Numbered from the stretch's first letter, positions 5,401 through 62,400 are shown. The stretch: 64,000 bases of DNA from an uncultured Parcubacteria group bacterium (GCA_947084965.1 CAMTUG010000002.1:79434-143433); one strand, 5' to 3'. The notes: generated from the letters alone by a model not told the origin. Numbers and translations are program-made.

Positions 5401-5760
5401 ATGAAGGACGTTGTCAAAGAAAAGTTGCGAAAAGCAAAACGCCGCGCCATCCGGGTGCGCGCGAAGATTTCGGGCACCAGCGCTCGCCCTCGTCTGTCGA
5501 TCAAGCGCTCGGCTAAGCATCTGTATGCCCAGTTGATTGATGACGTTGCTGGAAAGACGCTTGCCGCTGCCTCGGACACAAAATTGACCGCCGGCAAACC
5601 GCTTGAACGCGCAGGTGAGGTTGGGAAGGCGTTGGCTGAAGCGGGCAAGAAGGCTGGCATCACCTTGATGGTCGTTGATCGCGGTTCTTACAAATTCCAC
5701 GGTCGTGTCAAAGCGCTCGTCGACGCCGCAGTGGAAGGCGGTATTTCGATCACCAAGTAA
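5401..5760 (+). CDS. rplR: 50S ribosomal protein L18
   Basis: ...[18 protein letters not shown]... Confidence 0.9.
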
Positions 5761-5762
5761 GT

Positions 5763-6362
5763 ATGGAAAAGAAAGATTTTGGTAATAAGAAACAGGGTGG
5801 CCAAGGTGGCCAACGCGACGGACGCGGCGGAGGCCGTGGACGTGGTGGTCGTGACAATCGTCGCGACGAACCAAAGGAATTTGATCAGAAGATTTTGGAT
5901 CTTTCCCGCGTTACTCGTGTGACGGCTGGTGGCAAGCGCATGCGCTTCCGTGTCCTGTTGGTCATCGGTGACCGCAAGGGTCGCGTCGGATTTGGGGTAA
6001 CCAAGGGCGCGGACGTGCAGATCTCGGTTGATAAGGCGTTGCGTCAGGCTAAGAAGCGCTTGATCAAAGTGCCGTTTGTGAATGAAACGATCCCATTCCC
6101 GGTCACGGCCAAGTTTGCTGCGTCGGTCGTCCTCTTGAAGCCAGCTCCGAAAGGGACTGGGCTCAAGGCGGGGGGCGCTGTTCGATCCGTGCTTGAATTC
6201 GCTGGTGTCCCGAACGCGGTTTCAAAAAATTTGGGAGCCTCTAACCCGATTAACACCGTTAAAGCAACGTTTGAAGCGCTTAAGAAGCTTTCAGAAGGAA
6301 CGAGCACGCTTCAACGCAAGAAGTCTCAGACGTCTGCTGCGGTGAAGGAAGAAAAAGAATAG
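5763..6362 (+). CDS. rpsE: 30S ribosomal protein S5 with Gly/Arg-rich N-terminal extension
   Basis: GGQGGQRDGRGGGRGRGGRDNRRDE then LSRVTRVTAGGKRMRFRVLLVIGD S5 core. Confidence 0.9.
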   Translation: MEKKDFGNKKQGGQGGQRDGRGGGRGRGGRDNRRDEPKEFDQKILDLSRVTRVTAGGKRMRFRVLLVIGDRKGRVGFGVTKGADVQISVDKALRQAKKRLIKVPFVNETIPFPVTAKFAASVVLLKPAPKGTGLKAGGAVRSVLEFAGVPNAVSKNLGASNPINTVKATFEALKKLSEGTSTLQRKKSQTSAAVKEEKE

Positions 6363-27462: not shown

Positions 27463-27657
27463 ATGCGGCAGTATCCTAGCAAACCCTTGATGTTTTTTCA
27501 AGGAATTGCTATTATCACGTCACAAAAGTTCTGCGGATGCCTCTAAAAAAGGCATATTCAAGGCGCGGGGAGACGGCGAACGAGGCGTACCAAAATGTAC
27601 GTCGAGGAGCCGTCGGGGCCCCGCAACGCAGAAGATGCCATTTTTAGGGGCATACGA

Positions 27658-28841: not shown

Positions 28842-29609
28842 ATGGCCCACATTATCTCAGTCGTAAATCAGAAAGGAGGCGTGGGGAAAACGACGACCAC
28901 GGTTAACCTGGCTTCGTATTTGGCACATTTAGGCAAGTACGTTTTGGTTGTTGATCTTGATCCGCAGGCCAACGCCAGTTCGGCGTTTGGCATCAACTAT
29001 AACGATATCCCTGGAGGTACGTATGAAGGGATGATCGGAACACACCGCACCAAGGATCTGATCCGCACGACTGAACATGAAGGACTAAAGATCCTCCCGG
29101 CGTCACCGTCGCTTGCCGGGGCGGCTGTGGAGTTGGTCAATGAACTCGCCCGCGAGCACAAATTGCGCAACACCTTGCTTGAGGTGCGCAACGACTACGA
29201 TTATATTTTGATCGATAATCCACCATCGCTCGGGTTGTTGACGGTCAACGGACTTGTGGCTGCGGACAGTGTGCTCATTCCTGTGCAGGCCGAATATTTT
29301 GCTCTCGAGGGTCTCGGTCAGTTGCTGCAAACCGTTGACCTGATCAAACAGTCGCTCAATCCAAACCTCAAACTGATGGGCGCCGTGATCACCATGTTTG
29401 ATCCGCGCACCAAATTGTCGCAAGAAGTTTTTTCTGAACTGTATCGTTACTTCCCAGACAAGATTTATCGCTCGGTCATTCCACGTTCTGTACGCCTGGC
29501 CGAAGCGCCGAGTTTTGGCAAGTCGATCTTGAGTTATGACCCGTCCTCGAAGGCGGCGCGGGCCTACGAACGGTTGGCGAGAGAATTTTTATACCGAGAG
29601 GAATTATGA
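28842..29609 (+). CDS. parA: Chromosome partitioning ATPase ParA/Soj
   Basis: VVNQKGGVGKTTTTVNLA deviant Walker A. Confidence 0.9.
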   Translation: MAHIISVVNQKGGVGKTTTTVNLASYLAHLGKYVLVVDLDPQANASSAFGINYNDIPGGTYEGMIGTHRTKDLIRTTEHEGLKILPASPSLAGAAVELVNELAREHKLRNTLLEVRNDYDYILIDNPPSLGLLTVNGLVAADSVLIPVQAEYFALEGLGQLLQTVDLIKQSLNPNLKLMGAVITMFDPRTKLSQEVFSELYRYFPDKIYRSVIPRSVRLAEAPSFGKSILSYDPSSKAARAYERLAREFLYREEL

Positions 29610-30451
29610 AAAATTCAGGTCTTGGGAGGGGGCTTGGCTCCTTAATCCCGATGAAGCAGACAGAGGCACCGAGTGTGGTGCCACAAGGGAACATTCGCGA
29701 CGTTCCTGTCGGTTCGATTCGCGAAAACCCGCGTCAGCCACGTACCCATTTTTCTCCGAGCGAACTTGAGGATCTGATCGCTTCCATTAAGGAGCATGGG
29801 ATCATCCAGCCGCTCGTGGTGACGGAACTTGGCGGTAATTCCTACGAGTTAATCGCCGGTGAACGTCGTTTGCGCTCGGCACGGATGCTGGGCCTCGCGA
29901 CCGTACCAGCAGTGGTGCGTACCGCCAACGATCAAGAAAAGCTCGAGCTCGCGCTCATTGAAAATATTCAGCGCCAGGACTTGAACGCTCTGGAAGAAGC
30001 GGTCGCGTTTCAGGCGCTGGTCGAAGAGTTTGGGCTGACCCAAGATGAAGTGGCTAAGCGGGTAGGAAAGAGTCGTAGCGCCGTCGCCAACACTATTCGT
30101 TTAATGGATCTGCCGGAAGAGATGCGTCAGGCGTTGGTGGACGGGAAGATCACCAAGAGCCATGCACGCACCTTACTTGCTGAAACGGATCTCGCTAAAC
30201 GTGAACATCTTTTTCATGCCATGATGAACGGCGGCGGGATGACGGTGCGCGAGGCAGAGGCTCGTACAACCCCAACGACTAAATCTGCACCGATGCCAAA
30301 GGATCCAAATATTCTTGATCACGAACGTAAACTACGCGAGATTCTCGGCACCAAGGTCGACATTCAGGATCGTGGGGGTAAAGGGAAAATCACTGTCAGT
30401 TATTTTTCAAAGGAGGAATTCCGTGACCTGCTTAGTAAGTTGAGCGAATAA
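29606..30451 (+). CDS. parB: Chromosome partitioning protein ParB/Spo0J
   Basis: GIIQPLVV...IAGERRLRSARMLGL ParB box, HTH; 4-nt overlap with parA. Confidence 0.9.
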   Translation: MKNSGLGRGLGSLIPMKQTEAPSVVPQGNIRDVPVGSIRENPRQPRTHFSPSELEDLIASIKEHGIIQPLVVTELGGNSYELIAGERRLRSARMLGLATVPAVVRTANDQEKLELALIENIQRQDLNALEEAVAFQALVEEFGLTQDEVAKRVGKSRSAVANTIRLMDLPEEMRQALVDGKITKSHARTLLAETDLAKREHLFHAMMNGGGMTVREAEARTTPTTKSAPMPKDPNILDHERKLREILGTKVDIQDRGGKGKITVSYFSKEEFRDLLSKLSE

Positions 30452-39003: not shown

Positions 39004-40506
39004 TTAACGCATCACGAGGTTAGCGGTGTTGGCACCCAGAATCACTAAGAAGTCGACGGGCTCGGTTGGTTGAGCCGAATGATCTTCATCGCTGACCGTG
39101 AGCTCGCTTGGAATAATTTTGTTGGTGTACACCCAGCCGGCGGCCGACATCGATACTTGACCGGCCAGAATTTCAGACAGTGCCTGGAGCGCTTCCGGCT
39201 CGGTACCGTCGGTTAAATCGTAGATGACCGTTTGGGAGTAGTCGCGATTAACGGCGTTGCCGATTTTGATCACGTCAAACCCTTGCGCGGAGAGGATCTG
39301 CGAAGCGCCAAAAGCCATGCCACTGACGTTGGTCCCATTTTGAATTTCTACCCGAACGAAGTTGGGGACTTCTTCTTCTGGTTCGGACATGGCGATGTTT
39401 GAACCGCTGTCGTTGAGGATGTTGGCAGCGATGCGTTGGATCGGTCCCCAATCGTTGTTATCGGGCAAGAGGAGATAGGCGCCGTTGACGATCGCGCTGT
39501 AGAGCGGGCCGGATTCGTCGAGGACATGGTGGCTGATCGCGTTTTGGTCGATCGAAGGGATGTAGGTGGCGAGCTTGGTGATTTCCCACCCGGTTAAATT
39601 CGTTTCAATGTTGTCGCCAAGGGCGTCAAAGAGTCCGATGATGCGGGCAGGATTCAACAAGGTCGAAGCGGAAAGGAGTTCTTCACGTACGGCGAGGAGA
39701 ACTTTTTGCTGACGCGCAGCACGGGCGAAATCGCTGCCCTCGCCGTTGTTGCCATGGCGTGAGCGGACAAACTTGAGTGCGGTCGCTCCGTCCATATGTG
39801 TCCATCCTTCCTGGAAAGAGAGCGTTTCGTATCGGCAGCCGTAGGTCGGGACTTCGATCTCTTCGCCTGAAGCATCGGTGGTCGTTGTCGTCGTGCCACA
39901 GTCGGCATATTCCTTGCCTGGAGTTGGGTAGGCTGTATCGGTGAAGGCATTCTCCACGTAGATATCGACACCGTCCAACTCATCAATGAAATCAGCGAAC
40001 CCGTTGAAGTTGACTTTGACCCAGTAGTGGATCGGCTGTTCTAAAATTTCCCCGACAACCTTGGCGGTTGTTTCTGGCCCCTCGTAGACGTTGATCGAGT
40101 TAATGCGACCGATTCCACGGTCAGGGATCGGTACCGCCATATCGCGAGGGATCGAAAGCATACCAACTTCGCTGGTCGATGGGCGGAACGAGGTGAAGAT
40201 CATCGTGTCGGTCAGTTCTGATCCTTCATGGCCTTTACCGCCAACGCCGGTGAGCAAAATGTTGATGCGATCTTCGTCCTCGCCGGCGATCGGCTTGTCT
40301 CCTGAAAGGACGAGGCGCGAGAGGGTACCGAAGAATCCGCCTGGGCCTGTTTCCGTTGAGGTTACGCCAAACGAAAGGGCGGCCGCCATCATTGCTCCCG
40401 CAACGAGCACGACGAGAAAGAGACGTGCAAACAAAGAAACACCCCGTTCGCGCGGCGCCTCTAATCCGTATTTGGCTTTCAAAAAATCGACTTTGATCCG
40501 ATCCAT
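39004..40506 (-). CDS. LytR-CpsA-Psr (LCP) family cell-envelope protein with C-terminal extension
   Basis: N-terminal TM; LCP core ILLTGVGGKG...LSIPRD. Confidence 0.8.
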   Translation of the reverse strand: MDRIKVDFLKAKYGLEAPRERGVSLFARLFLVVLVAGAMMAAALSFGVTSTETGPGGFFGTLSRLVLSGDKPIAGEDEDRINILLTGVGGKGHEGSELTDTMIFTSFRPSTSEVGMLSIPRDMAVPIPDRGIGRINSINVYEGPETTAKVVGEILEQPIHYWVKVNFNGFADFIDELDGVDIYVENAFTDTAYPTPGKEYADCGTTTTTTDASGEEIEVPTYGCRYETLSFQEGWTHMDGATALKFVRSRHGNNGEGSDFARAARQQKVLLAVREELLSASTLLNPARIIGLFDALGDNIETNLTGWEITKLATYIPSIDQNAISHHVLDESGPLYSAIVNGAYLLLPDNNDWGPIQRIAANILNDSGSNIAMSEPEEEVPNFVRVEIQNGTNVSGMAFGASQILSAQGFDVIKIGNAVNRDYSQTVIYDLTDGTEPEALQALSEILAGQVSMSAAGWVYTNKIIPSELTVSDEDHSAQPTEPVDFLVILGANTANLVMR

Positions 40507-40587
40507 AACGCGAGACCATTATAAGAGGAAGTGGCTCTCTTGCCAAGCTTTGCGAATTCGGTTATTCTTGCTGCCGTTCGAGTTCAC

Positions 40588-40664
40588 GGGCGTTTAGCTC
40601 AGTTGGTTAGAGCGTTGCATTCACATTGCAAAGGTCGGTGGTTCGAGTCCACCAACGCCCACCA
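40588..40664 (+). tRNA. tRNA-Val (CAC)
   Basis: GGGCGTTTAGCTCAGTTGGTTAGAGCGTTGCATTCACATTGCAAAGGTCGGTGGTTCGAGTCCACCAACGCCCACCA. Confidence 0.8.
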
Positions 40665-40845
40665 AAAATTTCTCAGCCTAAGGCTGGGAAATTTTTGATA
40701 TTGGTGGACTCGAATCAGGGAAAGGGGAACGGGGGAAACGGGAGTTTCCCCAGTGAGGTCGCCAGTGAGGAAGGGGTGACAGCGAGCGGAGGCGAGCGCC
40801 AGAGGGGAAACGACGTTTCCCCATGGGGAGGAGCGTAGCGACGAC

Positions 40846-40869
40846 GTTCGCGTCCACCAACGCCCACCA
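40846..40869 (+). repeat. Direct duplicate of the tRNA-Val 3' end (att-like remnant)
   Basis: gttcgcgtccaccaacgcccacca versus tRNA 3' end gttcgagtccaccaacgcccacca; an inverted T-arm fragment ggtggactcgaa lies at ~40703. Confidence 0.55.
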
Positions 40870-40874
40870 AAAAA

Positions 40875-40908
40875 TCCCGAGGCGTACGCCTCGGGATTTT
40901 TTGTTTTC
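40875..40908 (+). terminator. Rho-independent terminator
   Basis: tcccgaggcgtacgcctcggga + tttttgtttt. Confidence 0.65.
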
Positions 40909-40939
40909 TATCCAGTGTGCGGAGGGCAAGATGCTATGA

Positions 40940-41902
40940 CTAGCGATCTGCTGATCTCCGCGGTTGACTCACCGTCAACAACAAAAATTTTCCTGAATCA
41001 AGCTGGGCGATTCCCGGATCTCCTCCGATCGGTGAAAGTAATGTCGTCGGCTCTGTCCAAGCATTATCGCGATACTCGGCAAACCACAGGGAAGGACCGG
41101 ATCCATAAAAACGCAGGACACCATCAATGACCACCATATTGCCCGTCCAGTTGCGTTGATCACCGGAAGTGAACGTCTCCATCTCGCTGAAGTTCAATCC
41201 ATCGGTCGATGTCTGAAAGAAATATTCCCCTGGCTTCCCTGGAGTTAACAGATACCAGGTGCCATCGAGAAGTCCGACTGCACTGTCGTAGGCATTTTCT
41301 TCTGCATAGGCAGTGCGGGCCCCTTCTTCAAACACATAGTTCACACCGTCCGTAGAAATGGCTGAGTAAATTTCTACTCCTTCTAACATTTTCGTCCCGG
41401 TTGTGTTCGAAGTAAAATACAGTCGGATACGGTCATCGTCTGTCAGCACGAGGGTCGGATCAAACGGGCGTTGGTAATTTGTCGGGAGTCCGCTGATGGA
41501 AATAATCTGCGGCTCTGTCCACGTTTGACCTTCATCTTCAGAAATTTTGACGGCAATTTTATCAAATGCGGCGTCGTCATTTTCTGGAAACCATTGGAAG
41601 GCCGCGATCAATCGACCGGAGGCGTCTTGAATAATGCTCGGTACGCCCGCACGCTCTTCAAATACCGCTGATTCTTCGAAGGTCGTTCCGTCCTCGCTCC
41701 ACCAGATATCGACATCATTCATCCAGGGGCCTTTTGTCGATTGATTGTTCGCGAGCGGCGGAGCTTGATTCACCCGAGCAGCGTTGGGTGATGATACGTT
41801 GTTTGATGGATCGGTGGATGAACAGCCGGCACCGGCAAGAACAAAAAACGTCAGGAGAACCGAACAAGAGAGGCGGAAGATTTTCATAGATAGAAAGAGC
41901 AT
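40940..41902 (-). CDS. Lipoprotein with BNR/Asp-box repeats (sialidase-like beta-propeller glycosidase fold)
   Basis: Signal + lipobox LAGAGC; Asp-box SEDEGQTW and a degenerate STDGLNF. Confidence 0.6.
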   Translation of the reverse strand: MLFLSMKIFRLSCSVLLTFFVLAGAGCSSTDPSNNVSSPNAARVNQAPPLANNQSTKGPWMNDVDIWWSEDGTTFEESAVFEERAGVPSIIQDASGRLIAAFQWFPENDDAAFDKIAVKISEDEGQTWTEPQIISISGLPTNYQRPFDPTLVLTDDDRIRLYFTSNTTGTKMLEGVEIYSAISTDGVNYVFEEGARTAYAEENAYDSAVGLLDGTWYLLTPGKPGEYFFQTSTDGLNFSEMETFTSGDQRNWTGNMVVIDGVLRFYGSGPSLWFAEYRDNAWTEPTTLLSPIGGDPGIAQLDSGKFLLLTVSQPRRSADR

Positions 41903-44016: not shown

Positions 44017-46191
44017 ATGAAATCCACTTTTAAGATTGATGGGATGCACTGCGCTTCCTGCGCGGTGACGATTGAAAAGGATCTCTCCAAGACTGCGGGC
44101 GTGAAGGACGCTATTGTTAACTTTGCTACGGCAAAAGCCACGGTGGAGTTTGACGAGGCTACGGTGTCGGAGATGGGATTACATGAGGTGGTTGTCAAAG
44201 CAGGGTATTCCGTTCAGATGGATCACGGTACACACGGCGCCGGAGCACCGCAGAGCGAACACGCACACGGTGGAGTACGAGAAGCAGGGCGTCGAGCGCT
44301 GATCTCGTTAGCGTTGGGTGTTCCTGTGATGGTGCTGGCGATGCTTGGGCGCGAACCGTGGGTGCAGGCGGTGCTGGCCACGATCGTCGTGCTTGGGCCT
44401 GGGATGGAGTTTCATAAGATGACCTGGAAGGTCCTTAAGCGTGGGCGGGCGAACATGGACACGCTGATCACCCTCGGGACGCTCGTGGCGCTTCTCTTCA
44501 GCTGGTGGAATCTGATCGCTTGGTGGAACTGGCAAGAGCTTACGAAGGTTGCTCTTGTGGAAGGCGTTCAACCAACGTTTCATCTCTACTTTGAGATTGC
44601 CGCGATCATCACTGGATTCATTTTGCTTGGTCGTTACTTTGAGGCGAAGAGCAAGGGGCGGGCGAGTGCAGCGATTCAGAAGTTGCTTGAGCTGGGAGTG
44701 AAGTCCGCACATCGAGTGAAGTCCGACGGATCGATCGAAGAAGTTCCACTCGAAACACTGGTGCTCGAAGATCGTGTCTTGGTGAAACCGGGGGAAAAGA
44801 TTCCGCTGGATGGACTCGTCGTTGATGGACGATCATCGATTGATGAATCGATGCTGACCGGTGAAAGTTTGCCTGTTGGGAAACAGGTTGGTGATGCTGT
44901 GTACGGTGCGACGATCAATCAACAAGGTGCGCTGACGATCGAGGTGAAAAAGCTTGTTGGGCAAACGGCGCTTGATCAAATTGTGAAGATGGTTGAAGAG
45001 GCACAGCAGAAGAAGGCGCCGATCCAAAAGTTAGTCGATCACATCAGTGGAATCTTTGTTCCGGTCGTGATTGTGATCGCTGTCATTACCTTCGCGATCT
45101 GGTATTTCGTGACGGGAGATGTGACGGCTTCGTTCGTTCCGGCCGTTGCTGTTTTGGTGATCGCTTGTCCGTGTGCTCTTGGGCTTGCAACACCGACAGC
45201 GATTATGGTCGGCACGGGTCGTGGAGCCGAACGTGGGGTGTTGATCAAAAATGGCGAAGCGCTTGAGCGCGGTCGCAACCTCGACGTTGTGATGTTTGAT
45301 AAAACAGGGACGTTGACCGAAGGCAAACCGTCGGTGACGGATTGGACAGGGGAGAATTTGAAAGGCGTCGCGACCGTTGAATCTTCGTCCGAGCACCCGT
45401 TAGCTAAAGCCGTCCTCACCTACGCTAAATCGCAAGATGTCGCTCTCGGTAAGCTTGAACACTTTCAATCCGTGACAGGGAAAGGGGCAAAAGGGACGGT
45501 TGATGGTGTGGCTGTTTTGGTCGGCAACGCGGCGTTGATGGCGGACGAAGGCGTGGATTTGAAAGAGTACGCCAATGACATCGCGCGATTGCAGTCCGAG
45601 GCGAAGACGGTTGTGATTGTTGCAGAGAACGGCAAAGCGGTCGGTTTACTGGCGATTGCGGACGCGCCAAAGGCAACGGCAAAGGAGACGATCAAAGCGC
45701 TGCGAACGCTCGGGCTCGAAGTGCTCATGATCACTGGCGACCACAAAACAACGGCACAGGCGATCGCCAATGATCTCGGCATCACCCAGATTGAAGCTGA
45801 GGTTTTGCCCGATCAGAAGTTAGAGATCGTCAAACGCTGGCAACAGAACAAAAAGAAGGTCGCCTTTGTCGGCGACGGGATCAACGATGCTCCAGCCCTC
45901 ACCCAGGCTGACTTGGGGATCGCTGTGGGGAGCGGTACGGATGTGGCGATCGAGGCCGGACAGATCGTGCTGGTGGGTGGCGGACCGGAAAAGGTTATCG
46001 AAGGGATTACCCTCTCGCGTCAAACGTACAGCATCATTAAGCAAAACCTCTTCTGGGCCTTCATCTACAACGTCATTGGCATTCCGGTTGCGGCCCTTGG
46101 ACTCTTAAATCCGATCATCGCTTCGGCGGCGATGGCCTTTTCCTCGGTTTCGGTCGTCTTGAACTCCCTCCGCTTGAAATCGGCCAAATAA
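44017..46191 (+). CDS. copA: Copper-translocating P1B-type ATPase
   Basis: HMA domain GMHCASC; CPC in TM6; DKTGTLT; [10 protein letters not shown]. Confidence 0.9.
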
Positions 46192-51652: not shown

Positions 51653-53494
51653 ATGAAGTTTGTCGCATCACTTTTTGTTGCGCTGACGTTAATTGCCACA
51701 CCGATATTTGTCGCGCTCGCCCAGCAGGAAGGGCTCGATACGGTTGGTACAGCGTCAGGACTTGGGAACCAGGATCTGCTGGTGACCATTGGTCGTGTAG
51801 TTCAAGTATTCCTTGGACTTCTTGGTGTTATCTTCCTGTTGCTGACGATCTACGCCGGCTACCTTTGGATGACGTCGCAAGGGGATGAAGAGAAAGTTCA
51901 GAAGGCGATCAACATCATTAAATCGGCGACGATCGGGTTGATCATCTGTCTGGCCGCGTTCGCGATCGCTACGTGGATCGTGAATGCGCTCATCGCAGCG
52001 ACAGGGCTCGGTTCCGACACTACGGACGACAGCGCAACGCCAACCCCGTTCTCGGACGCTCTCGGAAGCGGTGGTATTGAAGATCATTATCCGCCACGCA
52101 ACGGAACGGATATCGCCCGTAATACAAAAATTATCGTCACGTTTAAAGAAGAGGTTTATATCCCTTCACTGATTGTTGATTACGATACAGGGGCGGATGC
52201 GTCAGATGTGAGCGATGACACCGCTCCAGCCGTCGCTTATTTGAACACAGATAATGTGACGATCTCCTGTGTTGATCCGACCACAGCAGAGGAGACGGAT
52301 CTTACTTCAACGGAAGTGACCGTGGCCTTTACGGAAGATTTACAAACATTCGTGTTCGATCCGCCCGTTCTCGGTTCGTCTGTTTATGAAACGACATGCA
52401 CCGTTGCTCTTGGTCCGGGTATCTTAGAAGCGGATGGAGCGAATGTCTTCACCGGTTCAAGCGCGGAAGGTTACCAATGGTCATTCACGGTTTCGACCGA
52501 GATCGATACCACTCCGCCGACGATTCGTAGCATCTACCCAACAGAAGGGGCGACAGACGCACGCAATGTCTTAGTGCAGATCGTCTTTTCCGAGGCTGTG
52601 GATCCAACAACGACATCTGGAACGTATGACCTGACAGAGGGCGGATTCACCAACATCCAGGTTCAGTCTGACGAAGACGAAACAGGCACCTACAGCCCAG
52701 TTGCCGGAACATTCGTCATTTCGAGCGGATACACGGTCGTTGAATTTACCTCCGCCGACGCTTGTGGGACGAATTCTTGTGGAGAGACGATCTATTGTTT
52801 GCCTGGGCCGAGTGCTACAGAAGCAACAGAAGAAATTCAACTTGAAATTCAGGCCGCTGACCTCGGAGATTCTCCTCCAGAGGCGGCCACACCGTATACG
52901 GGCGTCGTTGATGTGGCGGGGAATTCCCTTGATGGAAACGACGACGGCACAGCCGGGGATGATGCACGTTCAGATTTTTCTGTCACGGATGAAATCGTTT
53001 TGGCCGGACCTGAGCTGACCGATATCTCACCAAATCCTGTTGAGGAAGATGTCGACGTGGATGCAGATCTGACCTTTATTTGGGATACGATCATGCGTTC
53101 AAGCACACTGACCAACAGCAACATCAGTTTGTACGCTTACCCCGATCACGAATTGTATTACGTCGCTCGCAACAGTTCGTACGACAGTAGTGGGGTGGAA
53201 GTGACAGCAACGACCCAAACCCCGGATCACACCGTGACGGAGATGAGTCATGGGACGTTTGTCGAATCGATTGAAGATGATCCATCAACAGCGGCGGATG
53301 AATCGACCTCACAACTGTATGCTCCATTACTCCCGGACGCAGTGCAGAGCATCTATCAAAACTGTTTCTACCCAGCGGTGGGGCCAGGGGCGAGCGAGAC
53401 GACTTCGTGTGATGGTACGGCCAACAATCCGTACTGCTGCGATGGAGTAGAAGCTGACGCTCCGTTTAACGCCACGACATTCTCATGTCCTTAA
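51653..53494 (+). CDS. Secreted/membrane-anchored protein: signal peptide + two-helix pilin-like (TrbC/VirB2-like) module + Ig-like domains + Cys-rich C-terminus
   Basis: MKFVASLFVALTLIATPIFVALAQ ... LLGVIFLLLTIYAGYLWMTSQGDEEKVQKAINIIKSATIGLIICLAAFAIATWIV; same module as the next gene. Confidence 0.7.
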   Translation: MKFVASLFVALTLIATPIFVALAQQEGLDTVGTASGLGNQDLLVTIGRVVQVFLGLLGVIFLLLTIYAGYLWMTSQGDEEKVQKAINIIKSATIGLIICLAAFAIATWIVNALIAATGLGSDTTDDSATPTPFSDALGSGGIEDHYPPRNGTDIARNTKIIVTFKEEVYIPSLIVDYDTGADASDVSDDTAPAVAYLNTDNVTISCVDPTTAEETDLTSTEVTVAFTEDLQTFVFDPPVLGSSVYETTCTVALGPGILEADGANVFTGSSAEGYQWSFTVSTEIDTTPPTIRSIYPTEGATDARNVLVQIVFSEAVDPTTTSGTYDLTEGGFTNIQVQSDEDETGTYSPVAGTFVISSGYTVVEFTSADACGTNSCGETIYCLPGPSATEATEEIQLEIQAADLGDSPPEAATPYTGVVDVAGNSLDGNDDGTAGDDARSDFSVTDEIVLAGPELTDISPNPVEEDVDVDADLTFIWDTIMRSSTLTNSNISLYAYPDHELYYVARNSSYDSSGVEVTATTQTPDHTVTEMSHGTFVESIEDDPSTAADESTSQLYAPLLPDAVQSIYQNCFYPAVGPGASETTSCDGTANNPYCCDGVEADAPFNATTFSCP

Positions 53495-56400
53495 AACGTT
53501 TCATCCTGAGTTTCGTGATCGCCCTCGCTGCCGTGGGATTCTTTGCTCTGCCAGCCCTTGCCCAGATCGATACAGGGATTGAAGAGGGGAGTGCATTCCA
53601 ACAAGCGCTCGGGCTTGGCACGGCCGATCCTAAGATTATTGTGGCGAACGTGATCCGTGCCGCCCTCGGACTGCTCGGTGTTGTTGCGGTCTGTCTGTTC
53701 ATCTACGCCGGCTTTTTGTGGATGACGAGCGGCGGAAGCGAAGAAAAAGTTGATCGGGCGCGCAAGATGCTGATCAACGCCACGGTCGGGTTAACGATTA
53801 TTTTGGCTTCATTTGCCATTACGCAGTTTGTCCTTTCGCGTCTGCTTTCAGCCACTGGAGTCGGCGGCTCTGATATTACCGGTGGAGGAGGCACGTCTGG
53901 TGGGGCACCGGCTTCCACCGACGCGGTGTTTGTGATTGAAAGCGCTTCACCGCAAGGCGAGCAGACGATCAAAAACTTAACGGTCCGTCTGACCTTTAAC
54001 AAAGACGTTGACGGGGACACGGTGAGTGCGATCACGATTACACCAGATGGATCTTCGACGCCGGTTGAGGGGACGTATGCGGTCAACGGTGATCGTGTGA
54101 CCTTCACCCCGAGTCTCGCCTGTGAAGAAGCGCCGAGCGAAAACTGTTTTGCGGAAAATACGTTGTACACGATCGAGCTGGGTTCAGGGCTGAAGAGTGA
54201 GTCCGGCCTGACGATCTCTTGTGGTGGACTGTATGACGCCTGTGAGTACGAATTTACTTCTGGGGAGCTTGTTGATACCACAGATCCCGAAGTTGAGATC
54301 ACCTACCCGGAAGACGGCGATTCCGTTTCTGTTGATGCGTACGTTCCGCTTCAAGCGCTCGTCACGGATGATGCCGGAGTTTCTTTGGTTGAATTTTACG
54401 TGGACGGTGTGTTGGTTGATACCGATCAACCGGACGGCGACACCCCGACCGAATTTATCGCTGAAATCGAATGGGACACCGCGGCGATCGAAGAGGGCAG
54501 TGAGCATGAGATTTATGCGATCGCCTACGATGTGAACGCGCATGATGCGGATTCGGATGCGATTGAAGTGACCGTACGTGCCGCGCACTGTTTTAATGGA
54601 GAGACAGATGAAGATGAAACGGGGGAAGATTGCGGCGGCGAAGATTGTGGTTCCTGTGGCGGTGATGCGTGTGTCGAAGATAGTGATTGTCAAAGCGGAG
54701 TCTGTGAAGACGGTTCTTGCGTCGATGCCCCAGAAATTACAGGCGTTTCTCCGGCGGACGGCGCTCCGGGCACCTACGTTACGATTTCTGGAAATAATTT
54801 TGGGAGCAGCACTGGCACGGTGTTGTTTGGAGACGTTGAGGCCGAACTTGCTGACTGTAACGACCCGTGGGATACGGATCAGGTCATTGTTGTCGTTCCG
54901 GAAGGGGTGAGCGAGGGGGAACTTTATACTATTACGCTCACAACCGCAGGTGGTCATAGCGATAGTACGGATGATGACAACGGTACGTTGATTGATGATT
55001 TTGAAGTGACTTCGGTTGTCCGTCCGGGGATCTGTCAGTTGGATCCGGATTTTGGTGAGGTCACAGACCCGACAGATGTATTGGGGGTAAATTTTGGCGA
55101 TGCCCAGGACAGCGGGGCATTTTATTTCGGCACCGTAGAAGCTGGAGCGTACACGGATTGGGCCGACGAACTTCTTTCCGTGATCGTGCCAACGCTCGCA
55201 GCCGATGATTACGATGCTACGGTTTGGATTGATGGAGTGGAATCAAACACCGTCAACTACGAAGTGCAGGAAGCAGACACCGGTGCGGCACCTGTCATCA
55301 CCTCGATCGATCCAGAATCCGGACCGATCGATGAATACGTGACCATTGTCGGTGAAAACTTCGGTTCTTCTACTGGTTTGGTTTATTTCACAAATACGGA
55401 TACAGAAAGTGCTGATTTTGGGGTAGTGACGGCCGCCTCCACGGATTTCCCCGCCGTCTGTGTAGATGATATCTGGGGTGGCGAAGAAATCATCGTCAAA
55501 GTGCCAGAAGGTGTTGAGAGTACAACGTACTCGGTCAATGTCTATCGGTACGACAGCGTCGCTTCGGAAGGGATAGACTTCACGGTGACGGACGGTACGG
55601 CCGGTCCGGGGATCTGTGCGATCGATCCGGATTCTGGACCGTCCGGGTATGAAGGGGTGACGATCTCGGGTGAAGGATTTGGGGACGATGAAGGCACAGT
55701 CACGTTTGCTGACGGTCAGTCAGCGAGCGTCACTACCTGGGAAGACGGAGAAATTGTGGTCGATGTGCCGGAGGCGGCAGTGACGGGCTATGTAACGGTC
55801 ACGGATACCTCAGATGATGAATCCAACGGTACGCTTTTTGGCATCGGCGACTGTAACGAAGTTGATCTTTGTGATGCGAACACCCAGCAGTGTTGTTCTA
55901 CAGGGGTGTGTGTTGCTTCAACGGGCAGCTGTCCGGAAGAAACGGTGATTGATGCGTCGTATGCCTGGCGGTTTTCAACTGGGCCGATTCCGACGGTGCC
56001 GGGGATCGAGGTGGAATGCTCGGACGACATGATCAGTCCGACCCCTTGGGACGGACGCTCTGGTGGTGATGCGGTTTGTGTCAATGCCGCCCTTTCGGCA
56101 ACCTTCGACACGACGATGGATCAGGATAGCTTTACCTCAACGACGATCTTGTTGAATAAATGCACCGGCCCATCCGACGACCCTTGTTCATCTGTGGAAT
56201 CGGTTACTCTCGACACGATCGATACAACAAGCGTCAGCTTTACGGTCGCGCCTGCCTCGGTTCTCGACGTCTCCTCGACCTACCTGATCACATTAACGAG
56301 TGGGATCACTTCGTATAATGGAACGGCGATCGAGGAAACAGCCTGGACATTTGGGACCTCCTCGAGCGCGGAAATTTGCGATATCGAAGGGGTGAACATC

Positions 56401-59400
56401 ACCCCGAGCAGCCAAACGATCGAAGAGGAAGATGGGACGGCGAATTTCAACGCCCAAGCGGTCGCGGCGGACGAGTGTGTCATCCTTGATTCCGGCGCCT
56501 ACGCTTGGAATTGGGAGACAGACGAGACGTATGCCACGCTGACAACCGCAGCCGATGCGGATTGCACCGGCGAGCCGTCTTCTTGTCAGAGTGCGCTGGC
56601 GGTCCAAGAGGGTACGTCTTACATGTTGGTCGAAGAAAACACCCAGGGGGTGGACGATGATGCCGACCTGCTGATTAATTTTACTAATCCGTACATCGTG
56701 AGTTACGAACCTTCTTGCGGTGAAGGGGGAACGGCCTGTATCAACGCCGGGATTTACGTCACCTTTAATACGGAGATGGACGAAAGTTCTATCACGAGCC
56801 CTGGGCGGGTCGTGGTGTATCCGTGTACGGATGAAATTTGCGCTGCCTATACGGATGCCGACGGGATCGAACTTTCCATTGATCTCGATGACGATGATCC
56901 AACACAGCTCTCCATCATCCCAACCAGCTACTTCACGTCGACAACGTATTACGAAGTTATCCTGTCCGGGGACATTGCTTCTGAGAGTGGGGTGTTGATG
57001 TCGGAAACGTACGACGGTGATTTCTCCTGGACGTTTTTGACTAAAGCAGACGACACACTTTGCGCTGTTGATCGTGTTGCCTTGGATCCAGGTTCGGCGA
57101 CCGTTGATTACGTCGGGGCGACAGCGGTTTTTGAATCGCGCGCTTATGGTTTGCCAGACGCCTGTTCTTCGGAAGGTCAACAGCTTGTCGGTACGAGCTA
57201 TGACTGGGCGTGGGTGAGCGACAACACAGCTGTTGCCACACTCTACAGCGATGGTGCAGTCGAAGTGGCTACGGACGAAATTCCTGACGGGTGTACAACG
57301 TCTTGCTTACCAGAAGGGACGCAAAGCTACACCGCCATTTGCGGCGAAGACGCAGACGGTGATGGGAGCTTGCTCGATTCGGGTGAGGATTGTGATGACG
57401 GAAACGCTGAAGACGGTGATGGATGTTCTTCGCAGTGCTTGAACGAGGGGACGACGGCCTGCACTTCTGCGACCGACCCGTCCTGCTGTGGAAATGGTAC
57501 GGTCGATGCGGCTGAGGAGTGCGATGATGGCGGGAGTAGGAGTGGTGACGGTTGTTCCGCAAGCTGTCTCAATGAAGGATCACGGTCCGTTGGTTTGAGC
57601 TGCACGGACAACGTTTTGACACACTACGACACCGTCGGGACAACGACCTGGGCCGGAGGGGAAGAGTGCAATGACGAAGATGATGGCTGTTCAAGTGTAT
57701 GCTTGAACGAGGGGTCGCCGTCGAACTTGGATTTGGTCGGTGTGTGTGGTAACGGTGTCGTGGAAAGTCCGGCAGAAGAGTGCGATGGCGGGGCTCGCTG
57801 TTCCGACACCTGTCTGTTTGAAGGGAATACCACGGCCTGCAGTGCAACCGTTACCACGAATTGTTGTGGCAATAGCACGACTGAATCTTCTGCTTTTGAA
57901 TCTTGTGACGACGGAAATACCACCAGTGGCGACGGCTGCTCAAATCTTTGTCTGCTGGAGGGAAGTTCCGCACTCTATACCACCCCAAGTTTCTGCGCGG
58001 ATGCCACAGTGGGGTTGGGCGAAGCTAGTGCTTGCGAAGTATCAACCAGCGATTTAGACGGGAACGTTGAACCGATTCAGGTGGCGATCATCGCCACGAC
58101 CGCTCCGGCAGAAGTGGTTGACGGAGTGGCGACGTCCACGATTGAGGCAACGACCGAAGGGGAGACCGGCGAGGCAGCGTTTAATCTTTCCTGTTCCTGT
58201 ACGGTGGACAGTGACTGTTCCGACTCGACGACGCTCGGCTGCGGAACGGGTGGATGTTGTTACGTCCGACCAACAGTAACCGACTACACCCCTTCAACAA
58301 CGGATGCCTGTCGCAACACGTTGATCTCTTTTACCTTTGATGCCGAAATGAACATCAACACCTTTGCTGAAAATGTTTCGGTCGAACTTGAGTTGGATGC
58401 TGATGAAACCTGTCCGTATGATGGGTCGACGGCCCGCGCGAACGGGAGCTGGTTCTCGCGTCTGTGGAACACGGTCACCGATTTCTTCACCGGATTTGTT
58501 CTGCCGGCAGATGCGCAATCATCCGTTTGCGAACTTCCTTTCACCTTCAGTGTCTCTGACGATGCGGGCGGACAACGCGTATCCTTGATCTATACGGAAT
58601 TACTGGAAGCGAGTCATGATTACACCGTGACGATCACCGGTGATCCAGATCACGACGGTTCTGGTGTTCGCTCGGCCGACGGGGTCGGTATGCAAGCGGA
58701 TTACACCTTCACCGCTGAAATCGGCGAGGACGTCTGCTCATTTGATGCGGTGAGAGTTGAGGATGAAGACGAAGATTCTCCAGGGCTCTTCACAGAGACG
58801 AATGAAGAGCACAGCTATCATGCTACAGCGATCACCACGACCGGAGGTGTGGAAGAAGAACTCTCTTCAATCCCAGGGGTTTACGAATGGGATTGGACGC
58901 AAACGTGGTGGTCAACCGACACGGAGATTTTGACCGTCCCTTCGACGAGCGAAACCGATGCCGAGGGCGATGATAACGTCGTCACCGCCGTCGGAGAAAA
59001 CGGGGAAGCGGTTATTTATGCCGATGCGCTGATCACCGTCGATACGCTCTTTGGCCTGGCGGGTGAATCTGTTGCTGGATCGGTTGATGCCGTTGCTAAC
59101 TTGTGTGAAAATCCTTGGCCGGCATTGCCGACCGCCGATGAACTCGCGGCGGGCGGTACCTGGGAACCGTTTACCGATGAAGACGGCGCGGATGCGGATC
59201 CAGATGATGACGGCACAGATGAAATTGCTGAACGCGATGGCTACATGCACTTCTCGACCTATTATTGCCGTGATGATGGCGATGAAGGGGGGAGTGATGA
59301 CTTTGATTCGGCAGACGCCGTCGGTGTGACGGCTCCACCGGGTGATGTGCTCAAAGAATATCTTTTCCGTTTCAGCAACGGCGACGGTATTGGTATTCGC

Positions 59401-62400
59401 ATCTCTCCAAATGAAGATCTCCTGGCGATCGGTGACTGGTATGCAGAGCAAGGATTCACCGGTTCGCCTTCCGCCACAACGGTCGATGGCTACGAAGCGC
59501 TCCAAGACGGCCGCACGGTTTACGTTTTGGCCGCCAATCAGAGCGACGATGGCGACATCTATTCGAATATTTACGTCCTCTCCTATTCCGAAGGGGCTGA
59601 TGAATCGACGGTGGAGATCTTCAACCAGATGCTTGAAAACTGGTCGTTCAATACCAACGTCAGTAATGATCAGCTTTGCTATGAAACGGTAACCACAGCA
59701 ACGGAAGTGACCGCCAGGATTCCGATCTGTAATTCAGCGACCTCTGCCGGATATCAGCAGGATTGTGTCATGGACTGTGATGACGCATGGCAGTGTTACT
59801 ACGGTGATACGGACGAGGACGGCTATTGTGACATGGTTGGGACGGCCAACTTGCGTGGTGAAGGTGCTGTCTGTGGCGATGGAGATTACGACTGTAGCAT
59901 TGATTGTTCAGGATCAAGCATCGGTTTCCGTACCGGAACCGTTACTCATGATGTGGATAGCCTTGAGATTTCAGCGGAGACCTGTTCCTCGGATTTCGAT
60001 TGTTCCAGCGGGCCTTGTAGTGCAGAAAAGGACAAGCTGACGCGTGACCTCAAGCGTCTGACCGACCTGCGCTATATCGAAGGAGCTCTTGAGAATTATG
60101 GCGAATCAAACGGGCGCTGCAGCGCATCGACCTCTATCTCTTGTACTTCAAGCGCGGATTGTCCGAGCGCCAGCGAAACATGCGAACCGGTCTATCCAGA
60201 GATTAACTCCGGTTCGTTCCTCCGCTCCATCACCGATAGCGCTTGGTCGTCGTGGACCGAGGTGTTGCAGAGTGACTTGGAAGTAACGATCCCAACCGAT
60301 CCGCTCAATCAATTCGATCTTTGCGGAGAGACGGGTGGCGATTACGCGGACTACAGCGCAGACACCTGCTGGAACGCGACCAACTCGTTATTCGCCTGTC
60401 CGGCCGGCTCCTACACCTATCTCTATCGTAATATTGGTCAAACGGCGTATCAGATCCTCGTTGACCTAGAATATGATTACGTCAGTGCTAGCCCGACGGC
60501 TTCTTGGGCCTTCGCCATTGACCAAGACACGACGGACGATCTCGATATTTTGGTGGGGAACGCCTTCGATAATCTGACTGACGGGTATCAAGAGGATCCA
60601 ACGTGTAACGACGACATCTACGGCGCATCCGAAGTTTGTGGGGACGGCGTGCGTGGGTCTGGGGAGGCGTGTGAAGCGGGTGATACCCAGAGCGTTGCTT
60701 GCACCGCACTGGTCTGTGTTAGTAGAGACGCGGATTATGACGGACAAGCCTGTCTGATCGATTGTACGGACACGACGATCTGTTCCGGCGGGGATGCGGA
60801 TGCGGACGGTGACTGTGATTCCGGCCTGGCCGCCGGCCTTGCCTGTAATTCCGGCGCAGTCGATTGTACGGACACGACGATCTGTACAACAACCGCTTCG
60901 GAGAGCGGGACAACGACCGAATCTTGTATCGACGACCCCAGCGATGCCCTGGCTTGTGATGATTATGAAACGAATCCTCGTGCGGCCTGCGTGCCGGTTC
61001 GCTGCGGAAACGGTGTCGTTGATGCGGGTGAAACGTGCGACGACGGTTCACGCAACGGGACGTACGGCTATTGCGGTACTAATTGCGCTTGGGACAGCTC
61101 AGCGTTCTATTGTGGTGACGGTACCCTTGCTGGCGGAGAATCTTGTGATGAAGGTTCAGACAACGGTGTCTATACACTGAATCCGGCTAATTCTTGCAAC
61201 GCCACCTGTTCAGGGACCGGTCCATCCTGCGGAGATGGAAAGGTAAATGGTGCCGAGATTTGCGATGGTGACAACGAGCAATACGAAGGCGCACTCTGTT
61301 CAGATGGGGAGACGGCGTGTGATGATGATAGCGACTGCTCCGGAACAGATACCTGTCATTTGACGTATGATTCGAGTGTGTCCATTTTGGGCCAGCATCT
61401 CGCCTGTCCGACAGGGAATGTCTGCGTCGGTGGCTCGCTTGATGGAGTCCTTTGTAATGGAACGAGCTGGGCGGATGTTGGGATCACGGGCTTGGATGAA
61501 CTTGGCGTCGATCTAGTTCTACTCGGTTTGTGTCAGGCGGGTGGGGGAACATGCGACACAACAGCGGCTGAATATCAAACCTATCGCACCCGTTCTTGCG
61601 ATGAAGATGCGACAAGTGCCACCGCCTGCCAATGGAACTCTTGGAATTATTGTAACAGTGCCGAGCAAATGTGCGGCGATGGGGAAATACAGGGTGAGGA
61701 AGAATGTGATGACGGTAACAGCAGCAATAATGACGCCTGTACTAACGCCTGTACTTCGAACGTCTGCGGTGATGGCTATTTGTACTCCGGTTACGAAACG
61801 TGCGACCGCGGGGACGAGAACGGCACGATCTGCGAAGCAGATTACGGTTCAACCTGTCGCTACTGCTCAAATGCCTGTGTCTATCTGACCGCTTCGGGTG
61901 ACTATTGCGGTGATGGAGTGCTTGATACATCTTCTGAAGTCTGTGATGGAACACTTACCTCGCACTATTACTATTTTGATTCAGCAACTCGGACGGTTAA
62001 CGGGATCTGTTACACGCTCGGTGACACACTCTCGGACGATGGTGTTGATTACACCTGTCGTGATGTTGGTGTTTGTGACGGTGGTCCTGATGGCGGGGAA
62101 TATTGTACCTACTCCGCTGGGGAGTCGGTTAGTGGAAATGATCAAACGACCTGTGATACCAACTCGACACAGTTCTATACTTGTATGAAGCCGACGTGCA
62201 ATGATGATTGTGCAAGCGCCTGTCCGTTCAATTATGAAGAAGGTACGGTCTCGATTACCAGCGAGTCCGCTGGGGCTGTGGCTGGTACTTCGCTTAGTCT
62301 GTACAGTTTTGAGAATGATGATGGTAATGCGCCGGACAACGCCACACTGACGCTTCCAGCCTGTACTGTTTGGTCGTCGTTAACTGCCGATATTTCTGAA

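Follow-up and report, generated by a model that had tools for sequence, protein, structure and literature searches.

Results

Organization of the tRNA-Val(CAC) locus

The DNA under study, a stretch of 64 kb that is called the window throughout, originated from an uncultured groundwater bacterium of Candidatus Uhrbacteria (Candidate Phyla Radiation), an assignment deduced from the fact that close homologues of the flanking LCP protein all stem from Uhrbacteria/Patescibacteria MAGs. An intact tRNA-Val(CAC) gene with an encoded CCA end is located on the plus strand (40588-40664) and was found by both ARAGORN and Rfam (73.6 bits). It is preceded by a promoter-like site on the same strand (TTGCCA-17-TATTCT, 40540-40568), which would drive tRNA-Val and which overlaps the divergent minus-strand promoter (TTGGCA-17-TATAAT) of the gene for the LCP (LytR-CpsA-Psr) protein (39004-40506, minus strand). 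The LCP-Der-Pth gene block as a whole diverges from tRNA-Val in the window. On the other side, a BNR/sialidase-like gene (40940-41902, minus strand) converges on the locus. It lies outside the repeat-bounded segment, a gene-free stretch of ~205 bases behind tRNA-Val that has two copies of the tRNA tail as its brackets. The open reading frames overlapping this 205-bp repeat unit all cross the tRNA or a terminator, and none is credible as a gene.

An earlier interpretation of the same DNA, made from the sequence alone and referred to here as the sequence-only reading, had pointed out that the tRNA 3' end is repeated ~180 bp downstream. The repetition is real and longer than had been stated. The proximal, attL-like repeat GTTCGaGTCCACCAACGCCCACCAAAAA (40641-40668, plus strand) starts one base ahead of the T-loop, extends through CCA and AAAA, and thereby comprises the last 24 nt of tRNA-Val and four further bases. 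The distal, attR-like repeat GTTCGcGTCCACCAACGCCCACCAAAAA (40846-40873, plus strand) is a displaced tRNA 3' fragment. The two match at 27 of 28 positions with an exact run of 22 nt, are spaced by 205 nt, and enclose ~177 bp of non-coding DNA. The repeat begins at the T-loop's 5' edge (G53/T54) and ends 4 nt beyond CCA. When the 18-mer from the tRNA 3' end was searched with up to three mismatches, two sites only were found in the 64 kb, 0.09 being expected. The single mismatch is situated at the left edge of the distal repeat, where the conserved A58 of the T-loop is replaced by C, a position that need not function there.

A displaced tRNA 3' end could be what is left of an additional tRNA gene in tandem that lost its 5' two-thirds by decay or overwriting; a decayed tRNA had also been offered as an alternative in the sequence-only reading. 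The 24 terminal nt with CCA are retained, and the terminator next to them is of the type also seen behind tRNA-Val, both of which would be in line with this origin. The distal repeat is, on the other hand, devoid of the T-stem 5' partner and of A58, similarity ends abruptly at the T-loop with nothing residual upstream, and no relative examined has tandem tRNAs at the locus. No tRNA was called at the distal repeat by ARAGORN or with Rfam, and a tRNA-like score was not obtained even at E = 10. With sharp fragment borders and neither a cloverleaf nor diffuse similarity, a decayed tRNA is not borne out, and we consider a second tRNA gene highly improbable.

Directly 3' of tRNA-Val, a terminator-like and bidirectional hairpin (hairpin 1, 40663-40697) is formed by a 14-bp stem followed by TTTTTG. 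It is succeeded by an inverted copy of tRNA sequence, TTGGTGGACTCGAATCA (40701-40717, minus strand), which is the reverse complement of 40639-40655 at 16 of 17 positions (94%) and spans tRNA positions 52-68, i.e. the T-loop, the 3' strand of the T-stem, and the beginning of the acceptor 3' strand. Together with hairpin 1 and the tRNA 3' end, this copy builds one extended palindrome (40639-40717). The inverted copy is its outer arm and a near-mirror image about the hairpin 1 loop, with an offset of 4 nt. The inverted T-arm fragment reported in the sequence-only reading is therefore present, but it is not an independent fragment; that hairpin 1 is the tRNA's own terminator and that the inverted copy lies in near-mirror symmetry to the tRNA had both been missed.

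The near-mirror register speaks for a local rearrangement during replication or repair, without any integrase. Template switching at the terminator hairpin would have made the inverted copy of the tRNA 3' end, and a second switch or a partial tandem duplication would have made the direct copy together with a paralogous terminator, resulting in a miniature direct-inverted-direct structure. The same instability would account for the flipping of the tRNA gene between lineages. Reverse-complement stems of this sort are a known product of template switching (PMC8794818). We treat local rearrangement as the main rival of the integration reading developed below and judge it rather unlikely. A difficulty is that the inverted copy stops after 17-19 nt and gives way to 128 nt of unrelated, extremely G-rich DNA for which the window contains no source.

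This interior (40718-40845, plus strand) is non-coding and is the most G-rich 128-nt stretch of the 64-kb window (45% G, 70% purine), which makes it look foreign. It contains a canonical G4 motif (40718-40742), tandem 12-mers of the form TC(C/G)CCAGTGAGG (40747-40770), and twin hairpins of the pattern GGGGAAAC-N3/4-GTTTCCCC (40732-40751 and 40804-40822). The similarity of the two hairpins, already recognized in the sequence-only reading, was confirmed, and the pattern occurs at just these two sites in the window, with 0.10 expected. On its minus strand, the interior is C-rich and G-poor like a Rho-utilisation site and sits between the terminator of the BNR gene and the antisense side of the tRNA.

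The twin hairpins could be taken to define a miniature transposable element (MITE, PATE, or REP-like) inserted next to tRNA-Val, as could 14-bp terminal inverted repeats at 40701-40714 and 40847-40860. Two near-identical subterminal hairpins in the same orientation, inverted repeats matching at 13 of 14 positions at the ends of a 160-bp unit, and TTGAT immediately to the left of that unit would agree with such an element. Its "terminal repeats", however, are tRNA sequence, and a target-site duplication is absent. Neither the interior nor the twin-hairpin segment has a second copy in the 64-kb window or in 36 related loci, so that the further copies which the sequence-only reading had proposed to look for did not turn up, and no transposase was found among the Pfam-scanned window proteins. 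A transposable element is very improbable, like the decayed second tRNA.

The distal repeat runs into terminator 2 (40868-40903), a perfect 36-nt palindrome (18+18) between an A-tract and a T-tract, in agreement with the strong terminator that had been described behind the distal repeat. It is bidirectional and also serves the convergent BNR gene. In a terminator pattern scan, the minus strand yielded hairpin 1 and the plus strand yielded terminator 2; by sequence, both are bidirectional. The two direct repeats are followed by weak similarity that runs on into both terminators (56 nt at 75%). This continuation counts against integration, as it also fits a local duplication. The identity of 27 of 28 positions in the distal copy as opposed to ~65% in the adjoining terminator argues against local rearrangement.

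The distal repeat is known from the assembly of the window alone. An independent Logan contig from the same sample (L011) begins within the palindromic terminator, and a contig reached via Der stops short of tRNA-Val. The L011 contig (3813-3849) breaks exactly at the 36-nt palindrome, which is an assembly (k-mer) artefact, the palindrome being longer than the k-mer.

Search for a recombinase, a donor element, and further copies

Among 44 window proteins examined with Pfam, i.e. 40 scanned open reading frames distributed across the entire window plus LCP, Der, and Pth, for which Pfam domains are on record as they are for the conserved backbone genes, none had a recombinase or integrase domain. 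The check included the tRNA-Val side of the neighborhood of a 3305-aa open reading frame. The 40 scanned frames comprised housekeeping genes, a copper-resistance cluster, and ParAB. This outcome speaks against integration and is what local rearrangement would predict. A cognate ICE, IME, or prophage of the same att specificity was likewise not present in the 64-kb window.

Searches outside the window gave a similar picture. By blastn, the interior had no match in phage and plasmid collections. In IMG/VR, the tRNA 3' 18-mer gave four chance matches located in coding sequence or iterons and no attP, the pattern of the inverted copy gave 12 matches that are presumably ordinary tRNA T-arms, and nothing was found for the 3' end of the type seen in the relative L003 (see below) or for the anticodon arm. 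The absence of the att sequence and of the interior from the phage, plasmid, and IMG/VR sequences searched counts against integration, as does the single-copy nature of the interior in the window and the 36 loci. With Rfam, at the gathering score as well as at E up to 10, the tRNA alone was detected. T-box, parS, CRISPR mini-array, tmRNA, and a retroviral-type primer-binding site were discarded on sequence inspection.

A few features elsewhere in the window were recorded. Two tRNA-Met genes are present, the first of which has a long inverted repeat or hairpin directly upstream (27537-27655; gcctctaaaaaaggcat ... atgccatttttagggg flanking a G+C-rich stem). The genes for ParA and ParB (28842-30451) are ~10 kb away from the locus. 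Cumulative GC skew rises monotonically, so there is no origin/terminus switch in the window. A gene for a T4SS-pilin/Big_5 protein followed by the open reading frame of 3305 residues occupies 51653-63402; the T4SS-pilin/Big_5 gene has a counterpart at the corresponding side of the HisRS block in L009 and is therefore part of the core genome rather than of an island.

Occupancy of the locus in other Uhrbacteria

The locus was obtained from 13 other Uhrbacteria with the LCP protein as the anchor, which served for every comparison with relatives. They share a conserved backbone, HisRS - signal peptidase - (DsbD_2) - tRNA-Val - LCP - Der - Pth, and tRNA-Val(CAC) lies between the LCP block and the signal-peptidase/HisRS block in L001, L003, L009, L030-L033, L035, and L013. 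The BNR/sialidase-like gene of the window is lineage-specific and missing from the conserved backbone of L009, L032, and L033. Together with a copper P-type ATPase gene (44017-46191), it represents a lineage-specific insertion into the conserved backbone next to the tRNA; both insertions are without accompanying mobility genes.

In seven relatives (L013, L033, L009, L030, L031, L032, and L001), tRNA-Val is followed by a plain terminator without any tRNA fragment. L002 and L005 do not have tRNA-Val at the locus. The contigs of L012 and L035 end inside tRNA-Val, and so does L034, a second contig of the L033 protein. These tRNA-internal ends were attributed to assembly, because L033, from the same species, is simple. 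A metagenome scan with the 3' half of the tRNA yielded only two loci, both of them empty sites. As the segment is missing in seven relatives with a readable flank downstream of tRNA-Val, its occupancy varies and it is not a universal tRNA trailer.

The closest relative, L004, differs from these. Its LCP protein is 91% identical to that of the window, its tRNA-Val is identical (as is that of L031), the promoter-like site upstream shows almost no change, and L004 and the source are the only members of their LCP cluster. In the protein database, the closest non-self matches to the BNR and DsbD_2 proteins were 44 and 63% identical, respectively, and no close homologue from the L004 organism was found. 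Behind hairpin 1, L004 carries the same inverted copy and then the start of the G-rich interior up to the contig end, 86 nt after the tRNA. Beyond hairpin 1, 40 of 52 trailer positions (77%) are identical between the window and L004, with an alignment score that none of 2000 shuffles reached. The first ~35 nt of the interior also align with L004 (25 of 31 positions identical; again 0 of 2000 shuffles). The corresponding value at 4-fold degenerate sites is lower, 50-52% for LCP and Der. Measured over the first 86 nt after the tRNA, which is as far as L004 reaches, the trailer evolves ~3 times more slowly than silent sites. A recent recombination tract was dismissed as the cause of this conservation because none appeared in a sliding identity profile. 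The trailer is not a coding sequence either, since indels relative to L004 break all frames.

Hairpin 1 is under structural selection. All 14 base pairs are kept in L004, three of them by changes on both sides, and none is broken. Its stem CTCAGC/GCTGGG, including the same U-G wobble, is common to the tRNA-Val terminators of L031 and L032. The ancestral version of the inverted copy, as reconstructed from the window and L004, is a perfect 17-mer complement of the tRNA, from which the window has since diverged by one base and L004 by four. Two of the four changes in L004 break pairing with the tRNA sequence. L004, the only sister lineage, already has the inverted copy. Neither the first twin hairpin nor the G4 motif is kept in L004.

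The trailer shared with L004 and the empty sites elsewhere identify the segment as a lineage-specific addition older than the split between the species of the window and L004. A comparison of empty and occupied sites, as suggested in the sequence-only reading, therefore gave a divided answer. Seven relatives are empty, but the closest one has the same trailer. The segment is not recent, L004 sharing its trailer up to the contig end. A conserved trailer had been named as the outcome that would speak against a mobile element. The L004 trailer is indeed conserved above the neutral level, yet the segment is missing in the seven others.

The empty sites also allowed the native flank to be sought. 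Terminator 2 resembles the native tRNA-Val terminators of L033, L009, and L032: its tail TTTTGTTTTC matches those of L033 and L009, and terminator 2 plus tail scored z = 7.1 against L033, 4.6 against L009, and 8.7 against L032. Such likeness would follow from the distal repeat having kept the original flank. Hairpin 1 resembles the terminators of L031 and L032, however, and it is the part that integration would assign to the element, so the stem that it shares with these native terminators weighs against integration. Because both terminators resemble native ones and the similarity continues into them, which is also what local rearrangement would give, the native flank does not cleanly separate integration from local duplication.

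A possible RNA function of the trailer

The slow evolution of the trailer suggested an explanation that is independent of its origin and compatible with any of the others, namely that the trailer has been co-opted as a functional co-transcribed RNA, i.e. a long 3' external transcribed spacer or small RNA extending from read-through of hairpin 1 to terminator 2. In such an RNA, a closing helix of 14 bp would arise between the antisense copy and the sense mimic of the tRNA 3' end, leaving a ...CGCCCACCA tail free, and the RNA could have an effect on tRNA-Val maturation or serve as a decoy or sponge. The identity to L004 above that at LCP and Der 4-fold sites, the lack of a recent recombination tract, and the structural selection on hairpin 1 are in favor of this explanation. 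Predicted folds were also more stable than those of shuffled sequences, with z = -6.3 for the trailer and z = -8.8 for the whole precursor. The z-scores were, however, as strong on the minus strand and reflect palindromes, not necessarily RNA function.

Other observations point the other way. There is no match to an Rfam family and no promoter-like site in the trailer, hairpin 1 resembles a terminator, L004 has not conserved the first twin hairpin or the G4 motif, half of the changes in its inverted copy disrupt tRNA pairing, and all more distant relatives are without the segment. The L004 sequence that would face the distal arm in the long-range helix is GGGATCAAACC. Compensatory changes between the window and L004, which ends before the distal arm of that helix, were seen for hairpin 1 only. 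Taken together, a function of the trailer as RNA appears improbable.

In the minimum-energy fold of the precursor, the 5' acceptor strand pairs with AACGCCC of the distal copy, which can take the place of the true acceptor 3' strand, and the true T-arm is sequestered. On this model, the read-through 3' extension could allow its antisense and sense T-arm/acceptor copies to swap partners with the real tRNA 3' half. The trailer might then be a selected RNA device that gates tRNA-Val maturation, or a CCA-tailed decoy, at a locus that has inverted repeatedly in Uhrbacteria. We regard this more specific proposal as quite doubtful. A pairing of leader and trailer over 11 bp (40577-40587 with 40704-40714) was rejected as not significant, 15 of 100 shuffles reaching it.

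In L013 (~315-391), 15 nt located 19 nt upstream of the tRNA are complementary to the first 15 nt downstream, which none of 100 shuffles reached; this may be a processing stem around the precursor.

tRNA fragments and inversion of tRNA-Val in L003

A second case of tRNA fragments was encountered in L003. L003 and its close sister L001 share 89% nucleotide identity in LCP, and their tRNA-Val genes (L001, 5833-5909; L003, 5754-5830) have opposite orientations. Located 34 nt downstream of the gene in L003 is a perfect 54-nt copy of tRNA-Val that begins with the anticodon arm and ends precisely at CCA; L003 also possesses a perfect 17-nt copy of tRNA positions 1-17 (+1 to the D-loop) upstream of it, besides a shorter 10-nt copy of the tRNA 5' end and a decayed inverted copy of the tRNA 5' half (5574-5614). 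The L001 locus is clean, without tRNA-Val fragments. A 45-nt leader/trailer inverted repeat was also seen to enclose tRNA-Val in L003, where the fragments extend across 5555-5920.

When mapped onto the LCP tree, the direction of tRNA-Val with respect to LCP is reversed at least three times. These flips, and the presence of direct as well as inverted fragments in the recently flipped L003, are in accord with local rearrangement. The borders of the fragments are not. In the window as well as in L003, the outer borders coincide with mature tRNA ends, and the inner borders coincide with published sublocations of integrase crossover: the T-loop, the anticodon arm to CCA, and the D-loop with upstream insertion. 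Such coincidences are predicted by integrase-mediated events, and template switching or other replication errors predict neither. The sublocation borders of the L003 fragments next to a clean sister locus in L001 thus argue for integration.

Discussion

The segment behind tRNA-Val(CAC) is an old, lineage-restricted addition with a well defined anatomy. Our preferred reading, to which we would give about an even chance of being correct, is that it represents an old scar of site-specific integration at the tRNA-Val(CAC) 3' end, i.e. an integrase-less, attL/attR-like remnant of the "microCIME" type. A scar of this kind is common in genomes and not a new system.

The following course of events is envisaged. 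An element with a tyrosine recombinase, bearing a copy of the tRNA from T-loop to CCA, would have recombined within the T-loop and downstream region. tRNA-Val would have been regenerated from the element-borne sequence, and the original 3' end would have been pushed downstream, where it would still precede the ancestral terminator, terminator 2. The integration would predate the split from the relative with 91% LCP identity, and the DNA other than the att-proximal part would have been lost later. The inverted T-arm piece is most readily explained as a later outward extension of the hairpin 1 palindrome, brought about by template switching, or as a piece of an att arm of the element.

Integration is suggested, first of all, by the combination of an intact tRNA with a nearly perfect direct copy 205 nt farther on that is unique in 64 kb. 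Crossover sites of integrases within tRNA genes fall into sublocation classes, namely the anticodon loop, the T-loop, and the 3' end (bioRxiv 10.1101/2020.11.02.365908), and a repeat from the T-loop to CCA corresponds to a canonical one. tRNA fragments of such form are a standard mark of integration (PMC9897764; PMC4383910). The sole mismatch resides at the left edge of the distal copy, at a position not needing function there, and the seven empty sites in relatives are in line with acquisition by integration, as is the foreign look of the G-rich interior. In addition, gene-less, att-flanked remnants of 130-220 bp have been documented as microCIMEs next to streptococcal ICEs/IMEs (PMC7563491). 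The suggestion in the sequence-only reading that the segment is a remnant or a tiny non-autonomous element fits this published class. Its broader claim, the footprint of a tRNA-targeting element, stands with regard to the repeat starting at the T-loop and to the variable occupancy; it is weakened by the lack of an integrase among the 44 window proteins and of a viral or plasmid counterpart in the collections searched. Two further points run counter to integration. The inverted copy is not predicted by it, and a dead remnant should have decayed, whereas the trailer is 77% identical to that of L004, compared with ~51% at 4-fold sites.

Should integration be the correct reading, tRNA-Val(CAC) would be a hotspot of integration or rearrangement in Candidatus Uhrbacteria, tiny-genome bacteria in which mobile elements and attachment sites have barely been charted, and the "microCIME" type would be extended to a tRNA target in the Candidate Phyla Radiation. 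The 22-28-nt repeat (GTCCACCAACGCCCACCA) is usable as a probe for integrative elements of Uhrbacteria next to tRNA-Val(CAC). That a second species conserves the trailer is unexpected and unexplained, and this is the sole feature that might make the locus more than a scar.

Comparison with known systems

Functional tRNA 3' external transcribed spacers exist, for example the 3'ETS of leuZ in Escherichia coli. Like a leuZ-type 3'ETS, the trailer is non-coding, lies 3' of a tRNA in what would be one transcription unit, and is conserved above the neutral level. Unlike it, the trailer is separated from the tRNA by a terminator-like hairpin. Template-switch (quasipalindrome) mutations, which make or lengthen hairpins (PMC8794818), share with the locus a reverse-complement copy across a hairpin, which here is nearly in mirror register (offset 4 nt); template switching accounts for the inverted 17-mer alone and not for the distal direct repeat or the G-rich filler.

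Closer parallels are provided by integrative elements. As in tRNA-targeting islands and prophages (Islander-type, T-loop sublocation), an intact, regenerated tRNA is accompanied by a displaced direct 3' fragment, the repeat extends from the T-loop to CCA, and occupancy differs between related genomes. In contrast to these islands, only ~177 bp lie between the repeats, without an integrase or any gene, the trailer is conserved in a species-level relative, and an extra inverted fragment is present. With microCIMEs and CIMEs, the segment has in common that it is gene-less, att-flanked, within the size range of 130-220 bp, and positioned at the 3' end of the target gene (PMC7563491). The published microCIMEs accompany, in tandem, an ICE or IME that shares their specificity and occupy protein-coding genes of Firmicutes (PMC7563491), whereas the segment described here is solitary, resides at a tRNA gene of a CPR bacterium, and stands without a known cognate element.
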